64,000 bases of DNA. It comes from Dehalococcoidia bacterium (GTDB taxonomy: Bacteria; Chloroflexota; Dehalococcoidia; SM23-28-2; RBG-16-64-32). Each line of letters starts with the position of its first letter. The stretch's first letter is position 1. Of the stretch, positions 21,674-63,609 are shown one piece after another. Under the pieces are notes generated by a model. That model saw only the letters and a program-made list of their open reading frames with translations, did no database searches and was not told the origin of the DNA. Location: the NCBI GenBank assembly GCA_034408935.1, contig DAOUMV010000025.1:30281-94280 (forward strand), written 5' to 3'. The translations under genes and the position numbers were made by a program.

Positions 21674-22546
21674 TCAGTTAGCGCTGGTCGTACTTGCCAG
21701 CTCCTGGGCGATCTCCTGGACGCGGCGGACCACTGCCTCCACCGCGGACTCCGGCGTTGAGGCGCCCGCTGTGACGCCAACCCGCTGGCAGTCCTGGAGC
21801 CACTCCGTCTCCAGTTCCTCCGCCGACTCCACCTGGTGGGCGGTCGTGCCCTCCTCCCGGCAGACTGCCAGCAGGTGTCTGGTGTTAGCGCTGCTTCGGC
21901 CGCCGACCACCAGCATCACGTCCACTTCCTGGGCCAGCTCCCGAGCCGCTGCCTGGTGACTCGACGTAACGTTGCACAGTGTGTTGATGACTCGCAGTTC
22001 GCTGATGTCGCTTACGCGGTTCTGTATCAGCTTGGAGACGAAGAGAGCGAACTGCTCCGGGGTCTGCGTGGTCTGCGATATAACGGCCAGACGGGTGGGG
22101 AGGTCGTCCGGGATGTCGTCATCGTCCGCCAGGGCCAGGGCGTTTCCCCCGGCCCAGGCCAGTACGCCTCTGACCTCGCGGTGGTTGGGGTCGCCGAAGA
22201 CGACCACTGTGAAGCCAGCATCGGCCATCTTCTTGGCCCATCGCTGGGAACGAGTGACGATTGGACAGGTGGCATCGACCACTTCCGAACTCCTCGCCCG
22301 TGCCTCCTCCAGTGTCTGGGGGCCTACACCGTGGGCGGTGATGGCCACCGGACCCCCTGCGCCGTCCAGGGGTTCACTGCTGACGCACACGCCCTTGCTC
22401 TCAAGATCACGTACGACCTGCGGGTTGTGTACGATCGGCCCCAGGCTTATGATCTCCCCGTTCTCCGCTGCCGCTTTCTCCATGATGTCGATCGCGCGGC
22501 GTACGCCCCAGCAGAAGCCCATATCCCTCGCCAGCAGTATCTCCAT
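21674..22546 (-). CDS. ispH: 4-hydroxy-3-methylbut-2-enyl diphosphate reductase
   Basis: GFCWGVRRA, IVHN, DATCP, NTLC, VGGRSSANT, GVTAGASTP; start reassigned to MEILLA. Confidence 0.95.
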   Translation of the reverse strand: MEILLARDMGFCWGVRRAIDIMEKAAAENGEIISLGPIVHNPQVVRDLESKGVCVSSEPLDGAGGPVAITAHGVGPQTLEEARARSSEVVDATCPIVTRSQRWAKKMADAGFTVVVFGDPNHREVRGVLAWAGGNALALADDDDIPDDLPTRLAVISQTTQTPEQFALFVSKLIQNRVSDISELRVINTLCNVTSSHQAAARELAQEVDVMLVVGGRSSANTRHLLAVCREEGTTAHQVESAEELETEWLQDCQRVGVTAGASTPESAVEAVVRRVQEIAQELASTTSAN

Positions 22547-22548
22547 AC

Positions 22549-23238
22549 CTACCTCGCTCCACCTTTCGTCTCCAGCGCCTGCGGCTGCCCGGCGGCGTAC
22601 ACGCCGCGGTATCGTTCCGGCAGCAGCTCGGCTATCCGCCTCATGATGAGGTCGGTGCCATGCTCCACCGCCTCTTTGGTAAGCCGTTGCGGCTTTGGCA
22701 GGTAAAACGGCTCGCCGAATACTACGTGCACCGATGTCCAGGGCGGGAAGAATGCACGCGGCAGCTTGACCCCCTCCGTGCCCCATATCGCCACGGGCAT
22801 GACCGGCGTGTTGGCGCGCATGGCCAGCAGCGCCGTGCCGGGCTCGCCCCGCCCCAGTCCGCTCTCGCCGGTGCGGGTGCCCTCCGGGAACATCCCCAGC
22901 ACCAGACCTCGCTGGAGCGTTTCCTTGGATCGCCTCAACGCCCGCAGGTCGCCCTCGAAGCGCCGCACCGGGATGCATCCGAACAAGTGGTACAGGAGCC
23001 CGAACACCGGAATATCGAACAGCTCTTGCTTGCCCATCCAGACGACGCGTCGGGGCATGACCACGGTGAGGATCGGTGGATCCGCCAAGTTCAGGTGGTT
23101 GCTGGCCAGGATTAGCGCCCCTTTCCGGGGGATGCGTTCCCGTCCCTTAACGTCGCGGCGGGTGACCAGCAAGATCAGCGCCGACGCCCAGCTTCTGACG
23201 TTGATCCAGTAGAACACCGCGTGGAACAGGTTCCTCAC
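22549..23238 (-). CDS. plsC: 1-acyl-sn-glycerol-3-phosphate acyltransferase
   Basis: NHLNLAD (HX4D) and FPEGTR motifs. Confidence 0.9.
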   Translation of the reverse strand: MRNLFHAVFYWINVRSWASALILLVTRRDVKGRERIPRKGALILASNHLNLADPPILTVVMPRRVVWMGKQELFDIPVFGLLYHLFGCIPVRRFEGDLRALRRSKETLQRGLVLGMFPEGTRTGESGLGRGEPGTALLAMRANTPVMPVAIWGTEGVKLPRAFFPPWTSVHVVFGEPFYLPKPQRLTKEAVEHGTDLIMRRIAELLPERYRGVYAAGQPQALETKGGAR

Positions 23239-23975
23239 GCTGAGCCCTCCACCAGCTCCAGCACCCGCTGCACGACCTCCTCTAGCGTCAGTCCATCCGT
23301 ATCGATGACGATGGCCTCCTCTGCCGGCCGGAGCGGCGATACTGAGCGCTCCGAGTCGATCCGGTCCCGCCGCCGCAGGTCCCGCAGCACCGCCTCCTCC
23401 GTCAGGTCCATGCCCAGCGCCGACAGCTCAGCGAACCGTCGGCTTGCCCTCTCCTCCACGGACGCGTCCAGGTACACCTTCAGGTCCGCCTGCGGGAGAA
23501 CCACAGTGCCGATGTCGCGACCGGCCATTACCACGGGGTTCCTTCCCGCCAGCTCTCGCTGCACCTTCAGCAGCGCTTCCCGCACCCCCGCCACCCGAGA
23601 GACCAGCGAGACCGCCGCCTCCACCCCCGGCTGGCGCAGGTTGCGCGTCACGTCCTCCCCGTCGACGAAGATCGTGCACGGCTCGATGCTGTCCGAGGTG
23701 GGAGGGCCGATGTCTATGCTGATGGAGGCGGCCAACTCGCTGAGGGCGTCCTCGTCGCTGAGGTCTTCGCCGCGGCGCAGCGCCGCCCACGTCATCGCCC
23801 GATAAATAGCGCCCGTGTCCAGAAACGGGTATCCAAGGTGGCAGCCCGTCTGGCGCCCGACGGTGGTCTTGCCCGCCGCCGCTGGGCCGTCTATGGCGAT
23901 GACCCGCGGGACTCTCGGATTGCGCCGCGAGGCCGTTGCCTGCCTTGATCCGGCTGCGGCTGCCCCATCACTCAT
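23235..23975 (-). CDS. cmk: Cytidylate kinase
   Basis: IAIDGPAAAGKTT, LDTGAIYRA, GRDIGTVV, RDRIDSER. Confidence 0.95.
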   Translation of the reverse strand: MSDGAAAAGSRQATASRRNPRVPRVIAIDGPAAAGKTTVGRQTGCHLGYPFLDTGAIYRAMTWAALRRGEDLSDEDALSELAASISIDIGPPTSDSIEPCTIFVDGEDVTRNLRQPGVEAAVSLVSRVAGVREALLKVQRELAGRNPVVMAGRDIGTVVLPQADLKVYLDASVEERASRRFAELSALGMDLTEEAVLRDLRRRDRIDSERSVSPLRPAEEAIVIDTDGLTLEEVVQRVLELVEGSA

Positions 23976-24031
23976 CGATATCGATTATAGGTGACGACTG
24001 TTTCGCCCAGCAAGGCGAGCCCTCCACCAGG
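23973..24031 (+). repeat. Junction repeat R, copy D
   Basis: CATCGATATCGATTATAGGTGAC...TTTCGCCCAGCAAGGCGAGCCCTCCACCAGG; shares blocks with copies at 24679, 25558 and 26862. Confidence 0.85.
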
Positions 24032-24055
24032 TCAGGCGGCTACAGGCGGCCGAGG

Positions 24056-24079
24056 CCGCCGCGATTGTGCGCCTGGGCT
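24056..24079 (-). repeat. Promoter module P, partial copy (-10 half, no -35)
   Basis: CCGCCGCGATTGTGCGCCTGGGCT; 23/24 identical to 24600-24623. Confidence 0.8.
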
Positions 24080-24092
24080 GGGCGTAGGGGCC

Positions 24093-24575
24093 TCAGAGGC
24101 AGGTGCCGACTTGCAACGGGCTTTCCCAGAGACAGACATTCACCTCAATCCATCGGCAGACTTCACCTGGCGGGCAGCCAATATGTGCCTCGTCGCAGTG
24201 CACCCACCAGTGGCCTTTCTCCCACGTCGCCGTGCATGACGAGGGGTGTACGACCCAGAGCCCAGCATACGGAAACGTCAGCATGCCGTTCCGGAGCTCG
24301 CCTCTTTCGAGTGCCTTCACAACCAAGGTCACGACTTCCGCTGTGGTAAGGGTTGGAGGCGTCGGCTCTGGTGACGGGGTCGGTGTCGGTGACGCTTCAG
24401 GGGTTGCCGTGGAGCGAGGGCCTTGGGCGGCTTCGCTGTCCCCCATGCCATCGTCCCCGCCAGTGGCGATGACCACGGTGAGTGTCACGGCCAGCGCTAT
24501 GACAACGGCCACGACGCCGAGCAACGGCCCCTTCAGGTTCCAGGGCAGGTTCCAGACTGCTTTGAGCCAGCCCAC
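24093..24575 (-). CDS. Membrane-anchored hypothetical protein (TM helix, Pro/Thr linker, 6-Cys domain)
   Basis: GAGGTAGG RBS and GTG start; TM LLGVVAVVIALAVTLTVVIA; TPTPSPEPTP; Cys/Trp-rich C-terminus. Confidence 0.7.
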   Translation of the reverse strand: MGWLKAVWNLPWNLKGPLLGVVAVVIALAVTLTVVIATGGDDGMGDSEAAQGPRSTATPEASPTPTPSPEPTPPTLTTAEVVTLVVKALERGELRNGMLTFPYAGLWVVHPSSCTATWEKGHWWVHCDEAHIGCPPGEVCRWIEVNVCLWESPLQVGTCL

Positions 24576-24599
24576 GTTGTCCTACCTCGCTTCCCCTTC

Positions 24600-24636
24600 C
24601 CGCCGCGATTGTGCTCCTGGGCTCGGTGGGTGTCAA
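24600..24636 (-). promoter_or_regulatory. Promoter module P (TTGACA-N17-CACAAT)
   Basis: Minus strand TTGACA 24636-24631, 17 nt, CACAAT 24613-24608, upstream of the 24575 start. Confidence 0.75.
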
Positions 24637-24678
24637 CGGGAGCATCTATCACCGCACAGCGCTGAGGCTGGGACAGTA

Positions 24679-24742
24679 CATCGATATCGATTACTCGTTA
24701 CGGCCCTTTCGCCCGGCAAGGTGAGCCCTCCACCAGGCGTGG
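24679..24742 (+). repeat. Junction repeat R, copy C
   Basis: CATCGATATCGATTA (15 nt identical to 23973-23987), then TTTCGCCCGGCAAGGTGAGCCCTCCACCAGGCGTGG. Confidence 0.85.
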
Positions 24743-24752
24743 ATAGGCCTCG

Positions 24753-24789
24753 TTGACGCCCGTCCCGGCCAGGCGCACAATCACGGTGG
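24753..24789 (+). promoter_or_regulatory. Promoter module P (TTGACG-N17-CACAAT)
   Basis: TTGACG 24753-24758, 17 nt, CACAAT 24776-24781, upstream of the 24818 start. Confidence 0.75.
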
Positions 24790-24817
24790 GTGGGTTGGAA
24801 GGTACGAAGGAGACACG

Positions 24818-25453
24818 ATGAGGATTCTTGCGGTTGTCGCCATCGCGGTTCCCGTTCTGTTGGCTTTCGCAGTCGCCTGTGGGGACGATAACAAGGGGGT
24901 ACAGGTGTTTCCCAGCCCCGCGGGCGAGTCTGAAGGCGAGGCAGACGAAGCGGATGGGGTGGAGGACGTAGGCGAAGCGGGAGAGGAAGGCGCGGATGAG
25001 GTGGAGGCCACCTCGACTCCGGAGTCCACGCCTGAGCCCACCGTCACGGCGGAGGCCACGTCAACCCCGGAAGCGACGCCCGCAGGAGAGGAAGCCTGCC
25101 CGGATGCAGACGGAGACGACGTGTGTGACGACGATGACCTGTGTCCCGACACCGCTGACGGGAGCGTGGTGGATGACGTGGGCTGCTCCGATGCTCAGGT
25201 GGACCAGGACAACGACGGCATCTGCGACCCGGCCGCGGCGAGTGATGGCCCAGGCGACTGCGATCTAGTCGACGACAACTGCCCGCTCGCGCCCAACCCC
25301 GACCAGGACGATTTCGACGGCGACCTCGAAGGCGACGAGTGTGACGACGACGACGACAACGATGGCTTCACCGATGCCGAAGAGATAGACGCTGGCTCGG
25401 ACCCCCTCGATCCGGCCAGCTTTCCCCCAGTGGGCTGGGGGCCCGGTGCTTGA
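24818..25453 (+). CDS. Lipoprotein with an acidic Pro/Thr linker and thrombospondin type-3 repeats
   Basis: AAGGAG RBS; signal peptide ending AVA-C (lipobox); DADGDDVCDDDDLCP and DNCPLAPNPDQDDFDGD repeats. Confidence 0.82.
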   Translation: MRILAVVAIAVPVLLAFAVACGDDNKGVQVFPSPAGESEGEADEADGVEDVGEAGEEGADEVEATSTPESTPEPTVTAEATSTPEATPAGEEACPDADGDDVCDDDDLCPDTADGSVVDDVGCSDAQVDQDNDGICDPAAASDGPGDCDLVDDNCPLAPNPDQDDFDGDLEGDECDDDDDNDGFTDAEEIDAGSDPLDPASFPPVGWGPGA

Positions 25454-25557
25454 GGGAAGACGCCAACACCGGTAGCAGCATCGACGACGTGGACGGCGAT
25501 GGCCTCACCGACGGCGTCGACCCAGGCTGTCCCTACGACCGCCTCGCGGATTCGTCG

Positions 25558-25628
25558 TTTCGCCCACCGAGGCGAGCCCTCCACCAGGCGTGGCCGGCGA
25601 GCGTGCCCAGGGCCACCCCCGGCACGCC
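25558..25628 (+). repeat. Junction repeat R, copy B
   Basis: 25573-25628 is a 56-nt exact copy of 26891-26946 (3' end of the 26857-28767 gene). Confidence 0.92.
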
Positions 25629-25659
25629 TGCTGCCAATCGCAGTATATCCACTCCATGA

Positions 25660-25845
25660 CTAGCTTCCCACTGCCTTCTCGTGAAGGTGCTCATGGTTGT
25701 GGGGGGCGTCGCTTCGGTGAGTGTGCTCATGCTTGTGTCGGTAGGGGTAGGGCTTGACATCGGCGTGGTGGTGGGTGTGAGGGTAAGGATCAAGGTCAGT
25801 TCCAATGTCGCCATTTTCCTTTGCCCGCTCTTGCTCAGCACTCAT
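25660..25845 (-). CDS. His-rich miniprotein (61 aa, putative metal-binding)
   Basis: AAAGGAG RBS then ATG; 12 His in HxHxHxH arrays (HTHHH, HKHEHTH, HNHEHLH). Confidence 0.7.
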   Translation of the reverse strand: MSAEQERAKENGDIGTDLDPYPHTHHHADVKPYPYRHKHEHTHRSDAPHNHEHLHEKAVGS

Positions 25846-25966
25846 AGTGTCTCCTTTCGTCAGCGCCGTGGGCCCCACCTATGCCACGATAGAATTTACT
25901 CCGAATCGCCACCCTGTCAATAGGGAAAGATACGAAACTGCCGCCGTCGAAACGGGTCGAGCACCG

Positions 25967-26001
25967 TTGACACCCGCTCGGCCCAGGCCCACAATCGCGG
26001 C
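25967..26001 (+). promoter_or_regulatory. Promoter module P (TTGACA-N17-CACAAT), antisense to the HEPN gene
   Basis: TTGACA 25967-25972, 17 nt, CACAAT 25990-25995; spacer homologous to the other P copies. Confidence 0.7.
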
Positions 26002-26015
26002 TGTTGCCAGGGCTG

Positions 26016-26723
26016 TCAGTCGGTAAGCTGCTTGGCGACGCTATTGAGGATGTTGTTGCTGGCCTCTAGCAGCGTCCTTGTGAGGCTGATCATGTCCTCT
26101 TTGCGCCGGGGATACCGATTCCGGTTCTTCTGCTTGAAGTCAATATCCATCTCGTGGATCACTTGATTTCGGCGGTGGAACACCTCCTGCAAGTCATCCT
26201 TCATAACACCGAGGCTGCTGGGACTCAGCCCGAGGTACTCAACAACATTGTAAAGCTGGTCGACCGATTGCAGACTTTTGGCGGTGAGATCCTCCACGAG
26301 CAGCTCAACCATGCCAGCGCGCGTACTCTCAGCGAGCAGTAGTTTGATGAGAAGTTTGGAGCTGATTGTGCGTGGCGCAGTGTCGTCGCCCTCTGAATCA
26401 CCACCTGAGCGCCGGAGGTGACGCAAACCCAACCTCTCAATTCGCTTTCTGATCTCTGGCAACCTCTCCACCATCTCAGGGAGTGCATCTTGTACGAGCT
26501 GCTTGGTCATCGAGTCGATGCCCGCCCCGGCGAACACAACCATTGCGCGGAGCAGATCCTGCTCCTCGTCGCGGGGAGTACCCTTTGCTCTTCGCGCTGT
26601 GCGCACCTGCACGAACGTGTCTAGAAGTGACTCTGCAGTGTCGTGGGCGTATTTCAGGATCAGGTAGGAGTTCTCCGTGGCTCCGCACTTCGGATCATCT
26701 GGTGGCACGAATCCCTTGGGCAT
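26016..26723 (-). CDS. Stand-alone HEPN-domain protein (putative RNase)
   Basis: R-N-Q-V-I-H (RX4H) in FHRRNQVIHEMD; helical; upstream DLLRAMVVFAGAGID segment; more A/T-rich codons. Confidence 0.72.
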   Translation of the reverse strand: MPKGFVPPDDPKCGATENSYLILKYAHDTAESLLDTFVQVRTARRAKGTPRDEEQDLLRAMVVFAGAGIDSMTKQLVQDALPEMVERLPEIRKRIERLGLRHLRRSGGDSEGDDTAPRTISSKLLIKLLLAESTRAGMVELLVEDLTAKSLQSVDQLYNVVEYLGLSPSSLGVMKDDLQEVFHRRNQVIHEMDIDFKQKNRNRYPRRKEDMISLTRTLLEASNNILNSVAKQLTD

Positions 26724-26856
26724 AACGACCCCCTTTCGGTAGCTCGGGTCGATTATACGCTAGTCCCGCTCACCGTCGGCGTCTCAGGCCCCTCCGCATC
26801 TGTGCAAGCGAGTCGTCCCCGGTTTGTGCCTCCCGTCGGAGGTACCTCATCGCTAT

Positions 26857-28767
26857 TCATGATAGGTGACCCGGCTTTCGCCCAGTAAGACGAGCCCTCC
26901 ACCAGGCGTGGCCGGCGAGCGTGCCCAGGGCCACCCCCGGCACGCCGAACGCCAGCAGCAGCGGCCACAGGGGGCGGCCGCCCTCAGCGTCGGAAGCGGC
27001 TTCCGGTGCTGATTCGTGCCTGACGTTGGCCAGCGTCGTCGGTTTCCTCGAGGCGCCCAGGGCCGCTGCCTCGACCTGCCGTGCTTCAGGGGACCAGCCT
27101 GCTGCGGCCGATATGCTTCTTCCTGCAGAGGGCCGCTCTGTCTGCTCGCTGCCGCCGGCGCTTGTCGCTGTCTGCGTGTCCATCACGGTCGGCGTGTCGG
27201 TCGCTGCCGGTGCCCCCGTCTTGTCGAATCGCACGTCGTCGAAGTAGACGGCCGCCGACGCCGCCGATGTCGGCCGCATCAGCAGACGGACCTTCGCCGA
27301 GCGCGCCTCCAGCGGCGCCTGTACGGGGTCCGTGTCAAGCGTGACGAAGTCCGCCGAGTCCTCCGCCAGTGCCGGGGAGTCCGCCACGGCGATCTGGCTA
27401 CCGCTGCCGTCGGCGCTCTCGTACCACGAGACGCGCAGAAGCGCCTCCCGTACCCCCGGGTCATTCTTCAGGGCTGCCGCCTGCAGGCGGTAGAAGGCTC
27501 CTCCCTGTATGCTCACCGTCTGATAGATCCACTTGGTGGAGGCCGTGCGGCTGACCAGCGCCGCCGACCGTCCTCCTTCTGCATGGAATGCGTTGCTGGC
27601 GCTCATCTCGCCGCCTATCTTGCGCCAGCCATACGGCGTGTCGTCCTCTCGCACGTCCTCGAACCCACCGTTGACCAGCGAGGGGAAAACCCTGGGCTCC
27701 GCTGCCTCGGTCGTGGGGACGGGTTCTGGGGGAGATGGGTCAGGGGAGGCCGCTTGCCCCGGTGTAGACGCCGGCGAGGGTGTCAAGACGGCTGTGGGTG
27801 TGGGCGCGTCCACCTGGCCGAACTGCACGGCGTCGAAGTAGACCACCGCGGATGCTGCCGATGCGGGCCTGAGCAGCAGACGGACCTTGGCTGAACCCGC
27901 CTGCGGTGGGGCCTGCACCGGGCCCGTGTCCAGCATCACGAACGCTGGCGAGCCCTCCACCAGCGCCGGGGAGTCCCCTGTGCCGATCTGGCTTCCGCTG
28001 CCATCGGCACTCTCGTACCAGGAGACGCGCAGCAGCGCCTCTCGCACCGCAGGGTCGTTCTTCAGTGCTGCCGCCCGCAGGCGGTAGAAAGCTCCTCCCT
28101 GCACGCTTACCGTCTGATAGATCCACTTGGTGGAGGCCGTGCGGCTGACCAGCGCTGCCGACCGTCCTCCTTCCGCATGGAATGCGTTGCTGGCGCTCAT
28201 CTCGCCGCCTATCTTGCGCCAGCCATACGGCGTGCCGTCCTCGCGCACGTCCTCGAACCCGCCGTTGACCAGCGAGGGGAAGACCGTCGGTTCCATCGGC
28301 GTGGCAGTGGGACTCGGCGGCTTGGTGGGGCAGGCGATGGGCGTCGCGTTCGGCTCAGCGGAGAACTGGAGGGTCGGGCTATCGACTGAGACGGCGCCGG
28401 TGTCCCCCTTGACCAGCACGCCGTAGCGGGCAGAGCGTGCCGCGCAGGGGGCGTCGGTGGTCAGGGAAAGGCACTGCTTCCCTACCCGCCAGACGTCTGC
28501 ATGCGCGTCATCCTGGTAGAGCGTCGCCCCGAACCCACCCGGCTGCTCATACCAGGCCACGCTCAATGATATCGACATGACGCCCGTCCCGGTGACGGTG
28601 AGGCAGCCGTCGAGGCGGTAGGTCTGGCCGGGGGTGACTTCTTGAACGTACTGCTCGACCCAGCCCAACTGGTTCGTGTCGGGTGTGGCCTCACCGCGGA
28701 CGGCCGCGAGGCCGCCGGTCAGGAGGGCTGCCCCAAGCCCGGCCAGGAGCACGATAGTGCGCTGCAA
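26857..28767 (-). CDS. Secreted/anchored surface protein with two tandem carbohydrate-binding (CBM4/9-like) domains and a C-terminal TM helix
   Basis: Signal-like N-terminus; two LVNGGFED...W...YFDxVxF domains; PT linkers; C-terminal PLWPLLLAFGVPGVALGTLAGHAWWRAR. Confidence 0.75.
   Translation of the reverse strand: MQRTIVLLAGLGAALLTGGLAAVRGEATPDTNQLGWVEQYVQEVTPGQTYRLDGCLTVTGTGVMSISLSVAWYEQPGGFGATLYQDDAHADVWRVGKQCLSLTTDAPCAARSARYGVLVKGDTGAVSVDSPTLQFSAEPNATPIACPTKPPSPTATPMEPTVFPSLVNGGFEDVREDGTPYGWRKIGGEMSASNAFHAEGGRSAALVSRTASTKWIYQTVSVQGGAFYRLRAAALKNDPAVREALLRVSWYESADGSGSQIGTGDSPALVEGSPAFVMLDTGPVQAPPQAGSAKVRLLLRPASAASAVVYFDAVQFGQVDAPTPTAVLTPSPASTPGQAASPDPSPPEPVPTTEAAEPRVFPSLVNGGFEDVREDDTPYGWRKIGGEMSASNAFHAEGGRSAALVSRTASTKWIYQTVSIQGGAFYRLQAAALKNDPGVREALLRVSWYESADGSGSQIAVADSPALAEDSADFVTLDTDPVQAPLEARSAKVRLLMRPTSAASAAVYFDDVRFDKTGAPAATDTPTVMDTQTATSAGGSEQTERPSAGRSISAAAGWSPEARQVEAAALGASRKPTTLANVRHESAPEAASDAEGGRPLWPLLLAFGVPGVALGTLAGHAWWRARLTGRKPGHLS
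26862..26946 (+). repeat. Junction repeat R, copy A (3' end of the surface-protein gene)
   Basis: ATAGGTGACCCGGCTTTCGCCCAGTAAGACGAGCCCTCCACCAGGCGTGG...GGCACGCC. Confidence 0.9.
27229..28284. repeat. Intragenic tandem duplication, period 594 bp
   Basis: About 27229-27690 repeats at about 27823-28284 with long identical nucleotide runs (offset confirmed at two anchors). Confidence 0.9.
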
Positions 28768-28854
28768 GCCAGCGTCCGCGGGTAGCCGGTGAGGTGGCCA
28801 CGCCTATTCTCAGGCGGCCCGTGGGTTTTGTCAACGATGTGTGAAGACAGAGGG

Positions 28855-29769
28855 CTAGATCAGCCGTTTGAGTCTCGGGTTGTCGGTGACGCCGGGGATG
28901 CGCCCCCGCTTGGCGATCGGTTTCCCCTCCACCTCCTTCAGGTCGGCCGTGAAGTCGTTGGGCTGGGCGGAGGTGATGTAGCTGCCAACCCCGAAGCCGT
29001 CTACCGACGCGCCTGTCGCCAGGAACTGGCGGATGCGCTCCGGCGTCACGCCCCCACGCTCGCCGGGAGTGTCCAGACGCACGCCCTGCAACCTCTCCCC
29101 CAGCGTCTCGGCCACCCGCAGCGCCTCCTGGGGCTCGTCCAGGAACGTGTCCACCAGGACGATGCGAGGCACCTCCGGCTCCACGTGCTTGTCGAAGGCG
29201 ACCGCCGCCTTCACCGTGTCCCCGAAGCAGATGATCATGGCGTGAGGCATCGTGCCCGAGGGCTCCTTTCCGGCCATGGCGGCCCCCGGCGTCGTAGAGG
29301 CGCTCGCGCAGCCGCCGACGATGGCCGCGTAGTCCATGTACGGCGCTACCAGCGGATGGACGTGGCGGGCACCGAAGCTCACCACGGGGACGCCCTCCGC
29401 CGCCTCCACGCACTCCTGCGCCGCCTGCGCCCAGCCGCTCTCCTGGGCTAAGATGCCCAAGATCGCCGTCTCGTAGACGGCATAGGATAGGTACTGGGCC
29501 TTGACGCGCAGCACCACCTCGTGAGCGGAGATGGGCTCGCCATCCTCCAGCCCCCAGACCTCGGCGCCCTGGGGCAGCGCCTTCCCCAGCAGGGCCCCCA
29601 CCTCGCGCATGCCGCATATGAGCCCATCGCGGTGGGGGAATATCTCCATCGCCGCCGTGGGGTTGACACCCTCGGCCTCCATCACTCGATGGGCGCGCAG
29701 GAAGTAGATGTCAGCGGTGTCACCCGCGAGGACATGCGGGGCCGGTTGGAACAGCTCCTCGCTCACCAA
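28855..29769 (-). CDS. pncB: Nicotinate phosphoribosyltransferase, apparently with an internal in-frame deletion
   Basis: DIYFLR, SFGARHVHP, GTMPHA, LVDTF, GVRLDTP, DGFGVG, AKRGR; the usual SGG loop between RLDTP and DGFGVG is absent. Confidence 0.85.
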   Translation of the reverse strand: MVSEELFQPAPHVLAGDTADIYFLRAHRVMEAEGVNPTAAMEIFPHRDGLICGMREVGALLGKALPQGAEVWGLEDGEPISAHEVVLRVKAQYLSYAVYETAILGILAQESGWAQAAQECVEAAEGVPVVSFGARHVHPLVAPYMDYAAIVGGCASASTTPGAAMAGKEPSGTMPHAMIICFGDTVKAAVAFDKHVEPEVPRIVLVDTFLDEPQEALRVAETLGERLQGVRLDTPGERGGVTPERIRQFLATGASVDGFGVGSYITSAQPNDFTADLKEVEGKPIAKRGRIPGVTDNPRLKRLI

Positions 29770-29772
29770 CGC

Positions 29773-30303
29773 CTATCCGACCGGGGCGCCGATCACTTCC
29801 GCTCCCAGCACCGTCTTGAGCTGGTTGAGGGCGAACCTGTGCGCCTCGGGGTCGAAGGTGGCTACGCAGTCCGCCGGCACCTCCACGGTGTAGTCGCGGT
29901 TGCGTGCGTCGGCGACGGTGTACAGCACGCAGATGTTCGTGCAATCGCCCACGACGATGATCTTGTCCGGCTTCAGCTCCTTGAGCCGCTGGTCCAGGTT
30001 CGTCTCGAAGAAGCCCGAGTAGCGCTGCTTGGGGATCACCTCCCCGGCGAACTCCTGTAGCTCGGGGATGATCTCCGTCTCTTCGCTGCCGCGAATGCAG
30101 TGGGGCGGAAACATCTTGAACTCCAGGTCGTCCGGGTCATGCATATCGCAGAGGAAGATGATGTGGGAACCCCTGGCCCTCTCCTCTCGCAGGAGCTCCC
30201 GGACGCGAGGGATGATCTCGCGTATCGTGGGGCCGACGTAGAGGTTGTGGCCCTCCTCGCAGAAGCCGCGCACCATGTCCACCACCAGCACGACGTTGGA
30301 CAT
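29773..30303 (-). CDS. pncA: Nicotinamidase / isochorismatase-family hydrolase
   Basis: VVDMVRGF, DMHDPDD, PPHC, KQRYSGF, GDCTNICV; adjacent to pncB. Confidence 0.85.
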   Translation of the reverse strand: MSNVVLVVDMVRGFCEEGHNLYVGPTIREIIPRVRELLREERARGSHIIFLCDMHDPDDLEFKMFPPHCIRGSEETEIIPELQEFAGEVIPKQRYSGFFETNLDQRLKELKPDKIIVVGDCTNICVLYTVADARNRDYTVEVPADCVATFDPEAHRFALNQLKTVLGAEVIGAPVG

Positions 30304-63226: not shown

Positions 63227-63475
63227 CTAGCTCAGGTGGATCACCAGACAGGTCGTCGTACGCTGGACTCCGTCCACCTGCTGGATGGCGTCCGTTATCG
63301 CCCGGCCCACCTTGTCCAGGTCGTCCGATTCCAACAGGGCGATGACGTCGAAGGGGCCCGTTACCGCATCCACCGATACGACCTGTGCGTCGGAGAACTG
63401 GAGCTTCTGCAAACCCTCGGCCACACTCTTGGCCTTGCCTACCGCCGATTCTATCAACACGTAGGCTCGCGTCAT
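63227..63475 (-). CDS. Stand-alone Lrp/AsnC ligand-binding domain protein
   Basis: AYVLI, VTGPFDVIA, GVQRTTTC. Confidence 0.85.
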   Translation of the reverse strand: MTRAYVLIESAVGKAKSVAEGLQKLQFSDAQVVSVDAVTGPFDVIALLESDDLDKVGRAITDAIQQVDGVQRTTTCLVIHLS

Positions 63476-63609
63476 GCTCACCCTCCTTTCCGCCACTGGC
63501 CTGACTGCCGAAATCATACCGCCTGGGGCCTCCCTGTCAAGGTGGGCCTCTCGTTGCCCCTGCCCACGCTAGGCTCTATAATGGCCGCATCCCTGACCCC
63601 GCCCTACTC

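Follow-up and report, generated by a model that had tools for sequence, protein, structure and literature searches.

A family of sigma70-type promoter-like boxes as candidate portable homology for gene-unit shuffling in uncultured Dehalococcoidia

Bacterial promoters are normally individual and degenerate sequences. Here we describe, by contrast, one essentially invariant 45-bp box with the layout of a sigma70 promoter, which is reused hundreds of times in polar arrays among related uncultured Dehalococcoidia. The point of entry is a 64,000-nt stretch of DNA from a Dehalococcoidia bacterium (assembly GCA_034408935.1, contig DAOUMV010000025.1, positions 30,281 to 94,280 of the forward strand; hereafter the window), which holds four homologous copies of the module, A to D. 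The module consensus is CCCCG-TTGACA-CCCGCCCNGCCCAGGCG-CACAAT-CGCGGCGG, ~45 bp in length. All four copies lie within a 2.9-kb variable island between cmk and the gene of a 636-amino-acid surface-type protein, and a profile search of the window places none in the other 61 kb.

24054-24084, minus strand: copy A, 5′-truncated and without a −35 element, retaining CGCCCAGCCCAGGCG-CACAAT-CGCGGCGG and facing cmk
24599-24641, minus strand: copy B, TTGACA-17-CACAAT, profile E=1.8e-11
24747-24791, plus strand: copy C, TTGACG-17-CACAAT, profile E=4.4e-9
25961-26005, plus strand: copy D, TTGACA-17-CACAAT, profile E=2.8e-11

The preliminary description of this locus had reported four homologous copies, and all of them are present, well beyond what shuffled sequence yields and with profile E-values from 1.8e-11 to 2.2e-7. 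The profile used to search the window, built from 96 related copies, finds sites A-D only at E<=1 across the 64 kb. The pattern GCCCAGGNNCACAATCRCGG (a 20-nt core, <=3 mismatches) likewise matches exactly these four sites against a shuffle expectation of 0.26, and none of 100 shuffles reaches four matches. A simpler pattern, TTGAC-N18-CACAAT with <=1 mismatch, has four matches in the window where 0.27 are expected, three of them being the full copies. Homology extends over ~38-45 nt in the full copies B, C, and D and over ~31 nt in copy A, whose profile match (E=2.2e-7) covers profile positions 17-47; when the window copies are aligned, no homology is seen in the flanks beyond the box edges. 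Compared with the canonical sequence, the window copies keep the hexamers and carry 2-4 spacer changes each. The other promoters of the window, those of cmk, ORF3, ORF4, and the 636-amino-acid protein gene, have no spacer similarity to the box. The island in which the copies lie comprises four open reading frames (ORFs) between two conserved flanks.

23235-23975, minus strand: cmk (cytidylate kinase, PF02224), conserved island flank
24093-24575, minus strand: ORF1, 160 amino acids, with an N-terminal membrane helix, a Pro/Thr linker, and a Cys-rich domain; headed by copy B
24818-25453, plus strand: ORF2, 211 amino acids, with a lipoprotein-type signal and bacterial TSP3 repeats; headed by copy C
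25660-25845, minus strand: ORF3, 61 amino acids, His-rich, with its own non-module promoter TTGACA-16-TAAATT at 25920..25893
26016-26723, minus strand: ORF4, 235 amino acids, with its own TATAAT promoter; convergent with copy D
26857-28767, minus strand: gene of the 636-amino-acid surface-type protein (CBM-like domain present as two repeats; anchor at the C terminus), which forms the second conserved flank

Two of the copies stand in a conventional position before a gene. The −10 element of copy B ends at 24608, and the GTG of ORF1 (24575) follows 32 nt downstream with GAGGT before the start codon; that of copy C ends at 24781, and the ATG of ORF2 (24818) follows 36 nt downstream, preceded by GAAGGAGA. 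Both gaps hold a Shine-Dalgarno sequence. ORF1 has no Pfam family above cut-off, and ORF2 matches PF18884 TSP3_bac with E=7.8e-8. Copy D heads no gene: it stands back-to-back with the ORF3 promoter and is directed into the 3′ end of the convergent ORF4, whose stop codon lies 20 nt downstream. ORF4 finds nothing in Pfam or PADLOC and only a sub-threshold match in NCBIfam; it sits in the lowest-G+C kilobase of the region (0.597) and has an R-x4-H motif (RRNQVIH). It may be a recently inserted foreign gene, one that copy D would transcribe antisense.

The island is further punctuated by a second repeat, R2, present in four direct copies of 60-115 nt. On the minus strand, R2 begins with the coding sequence of the C-terminal membrane-anchor tail of the 636-amino-acid protein (..GVPGVALGTLAGHAWWRARL..*) and then runs on into the promoter and ATG of cmk.

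23973-24036, minus strand: R2-1, the native cmk upstream segment, with a tail-coding remnant (..WWRARL..*), promoter TTGCTG-18-TATAAT, and the cmk ATG
24679-24742, minus strand: R2-2, a tail/cmk-promoter duplicate between the divergent copies B and C, 85% identical to R2-1
25558-25643, minus strand: R2-3, a partial tail-coding duplicate of 86 nt, 87% identical to R2-4, which ends a 102-amino-acid chimeric ORF
26848-26961, minus strand: R2-4, the authentic 3′ end (membrane helix and WWRARL tail) of the 636-amino-acid protein gene plus adjoining downstream sequence

The R2 duplication looks like an insertion footprint in the 3′ end of the 636-amino-acid protein gene. R2-1 is conserved in L049, one of the related genome and metagenome loci that were retrieved for comparison and are designated here by L-numbers. 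Within R2-1 the cmk ATG stands 8 nt after a perfect TATAAT (TTGCTG-18-TATAAT-CGATATCG-ATG; 23975-24000, minus strand), base for base as in L049, and because the ATG follows so closely the cmk transcript would be leaderless or nearly so. The 102-amino-acid ORF (25533-25841, minus strand) ends in the anchor-tail copy (..AAGVPGVALGTLAGHAWWRARLGGRNDE..) and overlaps ORF3 in a different reading frame; probably this is no gene but what is left of a chimera. The 636-amino-acid protein itself contains two near-identical repeats of ~190 amino acids (..VFPSLVNGGFEDVREDGTPYGWRKIGGEMSAS..) with weak similarity to CBM_4_9 and NTTRR-F1, and in L048 and L008 a canonical box is immediately preceded by an isolated fragment of this protein repeat (..LVNGGFEDVREDGTPYG).

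A syntenic relative, CAZYOV010000055 (loci L049 and L048), carries the same housekeeping genes as window positions 17-24 kb at 71-86% amino acid identity, together with a homologue of the 636-amino-acid protein. For Cmk the amino acid identity to L049/L055 is 86%, and the window has its gene order in common with these loci. The interval between cmk and the 636-amino-acid protein gene, however, spans 2.9 kb with four ORFs in the window versus 7.4 kb of different genes in the relative, and modules are found in both. The relative's island encodes an MBL-fold protein, a PAS-like protein, a PEBP protein, a lipoprotein, and an enoyl-CoA hydratase, and contains five boxes, all on the same strand; it is bracketed by the duplicated tail segment (L048 4739-4863 and L049 5515-5638; 125 nt, 91% identical). 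By profile search, the housekeeping genes beside the island have no module in either the window or the relative. By this comparison, the interval has long been a hot spot of gene turnover.

The relative also informs the age of individual copies. Just upstream of its cmk, L049 has a box with a degenerate −35 (TTCCCA) that aligns with copy A, 27 of the 28 core bases being identical; copy A is therefore an old, vertically inherited remnant. It had been proposed that cassettes acquire or duplicate the module on insertion at this locus, a proposal that gives way to a lineage-wide family with hundreds of copies, of which A is an old member. The divergent arrangement of copy D with an ORF3 homologue, including the ORF3 gene and its promoter, is conserved in L021, which suggests that ORF4 may have arrived later, downstream of D.

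The size of this family becomes apparent on comparison with related genomes. Some ~470 copies were found across ~190 contigs from related Chloroflexota/Dehalococcoidia metagenome-assembled genomes (MAGs) and marine-sediment metagenomes. An exact scan with TTGACNCCCN7CCAGGNNCACAAT over one genome per GTDB species returned 84 loci, ~75 of which lie in Chloroflexota/Dehalococcoidia MAGs as nearly identical copies of ccccgTTGACACCCGCCCnGCCCAGGCGCACAATCGCGGCGgcgg; the remaining 9, in unrelated phyla, do not have the spacer and are chance matches. The same pattern hits at least 120 loci in metagenome contigs, and profile searches count 218 copies in genome loci totaling 427 kb and another 259 in metagenome loci totaling 341 kb. 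A single MAG contributes 88 copies in 219 kb of retrieved sequence. Related Dehalococcoidia would accordingly carry at least tens of boxes per genome, and probably hundreds. Papers that name two of the metagenome accession prefixes concern deep-sea or marine sediments, and an origin in sponge symbionts, considered in view of isolate names, was set aside. A full-text literature search for the motif returned no matching paper, and the window copies represent a small, somewhat decayed outpost of what is apparently an undescribed feature of genome architecture.

Conservation of the box is sharply bounded. Information content falls to zero outside about −6 to +37 counted from the first −35 base, so that the conserved stretch opens ~5 bp upstream of the −35 and closes ~10 bp past the −10. 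The −10 invariably starts with a C, contrary to the consensus, and boxes with a ruined hexamer still retain GCCCAGGCG. Half-boxes and short 5′ or 3′ gene fragments stranded beside boxes are common. Concerted evolution within genomes was considered and set aside: an A/C polymorphism at the single free spacer position occurs at similar frequency in two MAGs, and no genome-specific variant is seen. The complement of CCCCG-TTGACA-CCCGCCCNGCCC in canonical boxes reads GGG-CN-GGG-C-GGG-TGTCAAC-GGGG, a G-quadruplex motif on the template strand that spans the −35; in the window copies only 2-3 of the G-runs remain and the motif is not kept. A structure of this kind could explain the conservation of the upstream C-run and the spacer.

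Several further sequences accompany subsets of the boxes. About 8% are followed by a ~35-nt string, CTACCGCAGCCAGCGCCTCCTGGCGTACCAGCC (L002, L071 (2325), L084, L083, L009, L104, L182, L201, and others), which on the reverse strand reads as a basic C-terminal tail, GWYARRRWLR*. After it there often come a second, TACAAT promoter and the first 20-30 codons (MEPRIQY..) of a hydrolase/adenylate-cyclase gene, which is complete only in L071 and is elsewhere a repeated 5′ gene fragment. In ~5% of boxes GGCGGGCAGTGAGGTCGCC stands right after the discriminator (L012, L013, L021, L037, L047, L070, L118, L165, and others); this extension could be a longer-box sub-family or a shared leader. A separate repeat family of ~200 nt with 91-95% identity is also present in related MAGs (L066 7736-7941; L067 2733-2921; L042 336-546; L062 708-917; L010 5840-6049), and boxes do not bound its members.

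In both its form and its placement the box resembles a sigma70 promoter. Copies B, C, and D have 17-bp spacing and a −10 element that retains A2 and T6, and the −35 is perfect in B and D. The conserved span, as judged by positional information, corresponds to the span expected of a promoter. Of 100 exact copies, 97 are intergenic. The next gene is co-directional rather than convergent in 44 versus 19 cases when only confident genes are counted, and in 147 versus 62 (~70%) in an enlarged set. Start codons cluster about 32-63 nt past the −10, with Shine-Dalgarno sequences in front. The genes so headed are highly diverse, with 116 Pfam families among 128 proteins, and include beta-propeller, TPR, PEBP, glyoxalase, DinB, dodecin, CDGSH, cupin, and SRPBCC proteins, ABC ATPases, kinases, and lipoproteins. 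The possibility that the module is just as common before ordinary genes, and as such a generic promoter, is borne out insofar as it heads all kinds of accessory genes, but not for core operons, which are without it. From these features the box can be read as a complete sigma70-type promoter, the activity of which we infer.

The units of the window have counterparts elsewhere. An ORF1 homologue in L141 is headed by a box, and another in L172 has a different promoter. Copy C, the 5′ untranslated region (UTR), and the signal-peptide region of ORF2 are together homologous to a unit in L150 that bears a canonical box; module, 5′ UTR, and gene start are thus inherited together. The view that cassettes carry a standard promoter is partly supported, as for copy B with ORF1 and copy C with ORF2, and requires amendment elsewhere: the module bounds units and does not always drive its neighbor, as at copy D and in ~30% of cases. 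Elsewhere in the window, an Lrp/AsnC-like gene of 82 amino acids (63227-63475) has the promoter TTGACA-17-ATGATT (63476-63560, minus strand), whose spacer shares only CCCAGGCG with the box, and homologues of this gene in L072, L046, and L015 carry canonical boxes. The CCCAGGCG likeness is too weak for the promoter of the Lrp-like gene to be called a diverged box copy; it could equally have arisen independently.

The most distinctive property of the family is its arrangement in arrays. Among 269 pairs of neighboring boxes <=3 kb apart, 263 are direct and 6 inverted (~98% co-oriented), whereas adjacent genes are on the same strand in only 65% of pairs. Mixed orientation is seen in 7 of 124 loci with at least two boxes, with one switch point each. 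The median spacing between boxes is 652 bp, with one small gene per unit; the unit genes lie either way round, and reversed genes have their own promoters. In L115, for instance, plus-strand boxes flank a 4.7-kb run of minus-strand genes. Box orientation is a local property that flips within single contigs. A replication-linked polarity is not supported, module-sense GC skew being positive in 51 loci and negative in 49, a weak test on short contigs. The preliminary description had also suggested that inverted copies could serve as substrates of inversion. This finds no support: inverted neighbors are just the 6 of 269 in relatives, the only other assembly of the locus (L001) is identical, and the window layout (− − + +) is one of the rare divergent switch points.

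Boxes also coincide with the boundaries between shared and unshared sequence. When related loci are compared, 183 of 480 internal homology-block ends (38%) lie in boxes, which cover 3.2% of the sequence, and in many locus pairs the sequence matches over hundreds of bases to one side of a box and not at all to the other. Two contigs of one MAG carry, between unrelated flanks, an essentially identical 337-nt unit consisting of a box, an Lrp-like gene, and the next box, and other box-to-box units recur in two MAGs. The earlier claim that the module is portable and tied to variable, cassette-like genes is in keeping with such box-bounded units in unrelated contexts, as well as with the joint travel of module, 5′ UTR, and gene start. 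Comparison of five unit pairs shows differences in the left box as far as the −10 and in the right box from just past the −35; the two boxes that bound a shared unit vary on opposite spacer sides, and a single fixed crossover point was rejected on this ground. Judging by these comparisons, the box marks what appear to be points of gene-block reshuffling in related uncultured Dehalococcoidia.

The box copies are homologous, abundant, and intergenic, are biased in orientation toward the following gene, form polar arrays, and coincide with block boundaries. We hold with moderate confidence that they constitute a lineage-specific family of ~45-bp sigma70-type promoter boxes that double as portable homology for the shuffling of gene units. 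Each box opens with a short C-run, continues with TTGACA, a G+C-rich spacer fixed at 17 bp, and CACAAT, and closes with a discriminator that is likewise rich in G+C. RNA polymerase would start ~7 nt past CACAAT and express the next co-directional gene, such as ORF1 from copy B and ORF2 from copy C. Recombination between near-identical boxes, most simply of the RecA-type homologous kind, would delete, duplicate, and re-insert the intervening units through excised circles or double crossovers, and the outcome would be direct arrays and mosaic islands such as that between cmk and the 636-amino-acid protein gene. Direct repeats would arise because an excised circle integrates at another box, which would account for array polarity, for block boundaries, and for gene orientation being free. 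Homologous recombination is favored over site-specific recombination because crossovers do not fall at one point and neither hairpin nor inverted arms are evident. The window lineage would be drifting away from this state, with hexamers retained and spacers altered, copy A minus its −35, and copy D facing an unrelated inserted gene.

A number of observations weigh against this account of promoter boxes recombining by homology. About 30% of boxes, D among them, are directed at the 3′ end of a real gene that runs toward them; such genes include those for an exonuclease, an RRM protein, a thioredoxin, and a terminase. Array polarity is far above gene polarity and is not predicted by promoter function alone. 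In 117 copies that fail the exact pattern, conservation is 0.87 in the spacer, 0.87 in the −35, and 0.80 in the −10, and in decayed copies the upstream CCCCG is conserved as strongly as the hexamers. The single free spacer position shows an identical A/C polymorphism in two species. As a plain sigma70 promoter leaves the conservation of spacer and CCCCG and the A/C polymorphism unexplained, the spacer would be recognized or constrained by something else. Half-modules missing either the −35 or the −10 occur and are not expected from homologous recombination of full copies. Furthermore, the related sequence consists mostly of fragmented MAG and metagenome contigs, which limits what can be said of per-genome copy number and array ends. 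The invariant spacer, the upstream C-run, and the half-boxes are left unexplained by homologous recombination, and a spacer-binding protein, be it a regulator or a recombinase, is a live alternative.

One form of this alternative takes the box as the recombination site of a dedicated, unrecognized integron-like cassette system, in which a recombinase reads the spacer and the promoter is a bonus or a coincidence. We consider it unlikely, although much of the array evidence would follow from it. Circles excised and inserted at the box would automatically give direct arrays, as befits a neighbor co-orientation of 263:6 that is independent of gene orientation, a median spacing of ~650 bp with a single small gene per unit, and unit genes in either orientation with reversed ones under their own promoters. 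It also suits a spacer conserved like the hexamers, the half-sites, and the homology-block ends within boxes. However, hairpin potential is not above that of composition (z from −0.55 to +1.5), GTTRRRY/RYYYAAC cores are absent, and no inverted arms are evident. The searches for a recombinase, far from exhaustive, covered 10 larger proteins from two long arrays and the 25 commonest families of the 128 module-led proteins and found none, and the five unit pairs above do not fit one fixed crossover point. A hairpin of the attC or REP type was likewise rejected: CCCGCC(CN)GCC / GGCGGCGGG can be drawn around the −10, but its folding is no better than that of shuffles and its right arm is poorly conserved. 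The more specific proposal, that the box is the attachment site of an undescribed cassette system of marine Dehalococcoidia in which a spacer-reading protein drives excision and polar single-gene insertion, appears quite improbable. Were it true, recombination in the spacer would join the −35 of one partner to the −10 of the other and furnish each unit with a ready-made promoter, the functional opposite of promoterless integron cassettes.

Another form makes the box the promoter and operator of one huge regulon, with a transcription factor or a specialized sigma factor contacting the spacer and discriminator, and the arrays and block ends as side effects. Full-length conservation in several species while the adjacent UTRs diverge, the end of conservation near the expected transcription start, and the invariant non-consensus C at the first −10 position would all be natural under such control, as would the many small stress-type or accessory genes that are headed (DinB, glyoxalase, dodecin, PEBP, CDGSH, cupin, SRPBCC). 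Operators, however, are normally degenerate and not >90% identical over 45 bp in hundreds of copies, and the 116 Pfam families headed are without a common theme. Moreover, a regulon leaves the 98% neighbor co-orientation and the 30% of boxes facing gene ends unexplained, and no candidate regulator was identified. We accordingly regard this explanation, too, as quite improbable.

It seems to us very improbable that the box is instead a dispersed repeat like REP, MITE, or Correia elements, selfish or neutral, which spreads by itself through intergenic DNA and whose promoter likeness has little or no function. High copy number, intergenic location, short length with sharp bounds, the many decayed or truncated copies, and the sizeable minority of boxes without a following co-directional gene are what such a repeat would show. 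But the box is not palindromic, alignments show no terminal inverted repeats or target duplications at its edges, and its orientation is clearly biased to gene starts at fixed, UTR-like distances. Independent insertion predicts unique flanks on both sides, whereas the observed flanks are shared on one side only, and copy A keeps an orthologous position between species. Rfam yielded no relevant match at E<=1 in window positions 22000-30000 or in five array-rich loci, and an RNA family was set aside for want of a matching Rfam entry. A phage origin, to which one copy abutting a terminase gene might point, was also rejected as a general explanation: there is no exact box match in IMG/VR and the copies lie within conserved chromosomal gene order. 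Finally, that A-D are independent ordinary promoters alike by chance or convergent selection in a G+C-rich genome, for which the good −35/−10 hexamers with 17-bp spacing in all are the sole argument, is refuted for practical purposes and as the preliminary description held, by four observed matches versus 0.26 expected, profile E-values down to 2e-11, other window promoters without spacer similarity, and hundreds of homologous copies in relatives.

Promoter boxes that also serve as recombination homology would suggest a simple route by which uncultured sediment bacteria combine accessory-gene turnover with immediate expression, a route documented so far mainly for the promoter-early stem-loops (PeSLs) of T4-type phages and, in a different manner, for integrons. 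If the box is active, a regulatory sequence and a recombination substrate are one and the same element, which would offer a practical means of locating variable islands in these MAGs and, for a phylum poor in genetic tools, a possible standard promoter. Spacer invariance and the 98% array polarity point to a further protein partner or mechanism.

Several known systems share part of these features. Mycobacteriophages have stoperators and start-associated sequences, phage sites of 13-17 bp that bind repressor or are associated with translation. Like the box, they are short, asymmetric, conserved sites repeated by the dozen between genes and nearly all in one orientation relative to transcription; in contrast to the box, which is a complete promoter-like site, they are not complete promoters. 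The Correia, REP/BIME, and ERIC repeats are likewise short, high-copy, and intergenic, can provide adjacent genes with promoters or alter existing ones, and are hot spots of recombination. These elements, however, have terminal inverted repeats or palindromes, Correia elements also a TA target duplication, and such repeats insert in either orientation, whereas the box, compared with Correia, REP, and MITE elements, is without palindrome, terminal inverted repeats, or target duplication and shows strong local polarity.

Integron arrays, such as the Vibrio cholerae repeats, come closer in overall layout: co-oriented repeats are spaced by single small ORFs of diverse or unknown function in variable regions, occasional genes are reversed with promoters of their own, and the repeat stands at a short, regular distance before the ORF. 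Their attC sites, imperfectly palindromic and recombining in the form of a folded single strand, contain RYYYAAC/GTTRRRY cores, and integron cassettes are typically promoterless. The box, on the other hand, folds no better than shuffles (z=−0.55, +0.21, +1.09, +0.91, and +1.50 for the consensus on both strands and copies B, C, and D); the only GTT of the consensus, in GTTGACA, does not fit GTTRRRY, and there is no inverse core. No integrase, attI, or Pc was seen in the 10 larger proteins of two arrays and the 25 top families, on contigs that are mostly short and yielded no array end, and every unit boundary here is a promoter-like site.

The closest analogue appears to be the PeSLs, mobile regulatory cassettes of T4-type phages (Arbiol et al., 2010, PMC2839356; Comeau et al., 2014, PMC4122927). 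PeSLs are described as promoter motifs of sigma70-like type that lie in hyperplastic regions, bring about modular shuffling, and give rise to mini-circles, and both their promoter activity and the mini-circles are reported as demonstrated (PMC2839356, PMC4122927). They share with the box a short, conserved promoter of sigma70-like form, which recurs in variable regions where small non-essential ORFs abound, with copies at the junctions of exchanged unrelated modules and recombination between copies proposed to excise and re-insert units. They differ in that the PeSL motif joins a promoter to a terminator stem-loop, whereas the box has no stable hairpin and nothing conserved outside it; in addition, the box belongs to a bacterial chromosome lineage rather than a phage, has an invariant spacer, and forms arrays of almost strict co-orientation. 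By this comparison, the box may be regarded as a bacterial analogue of the PeSL.

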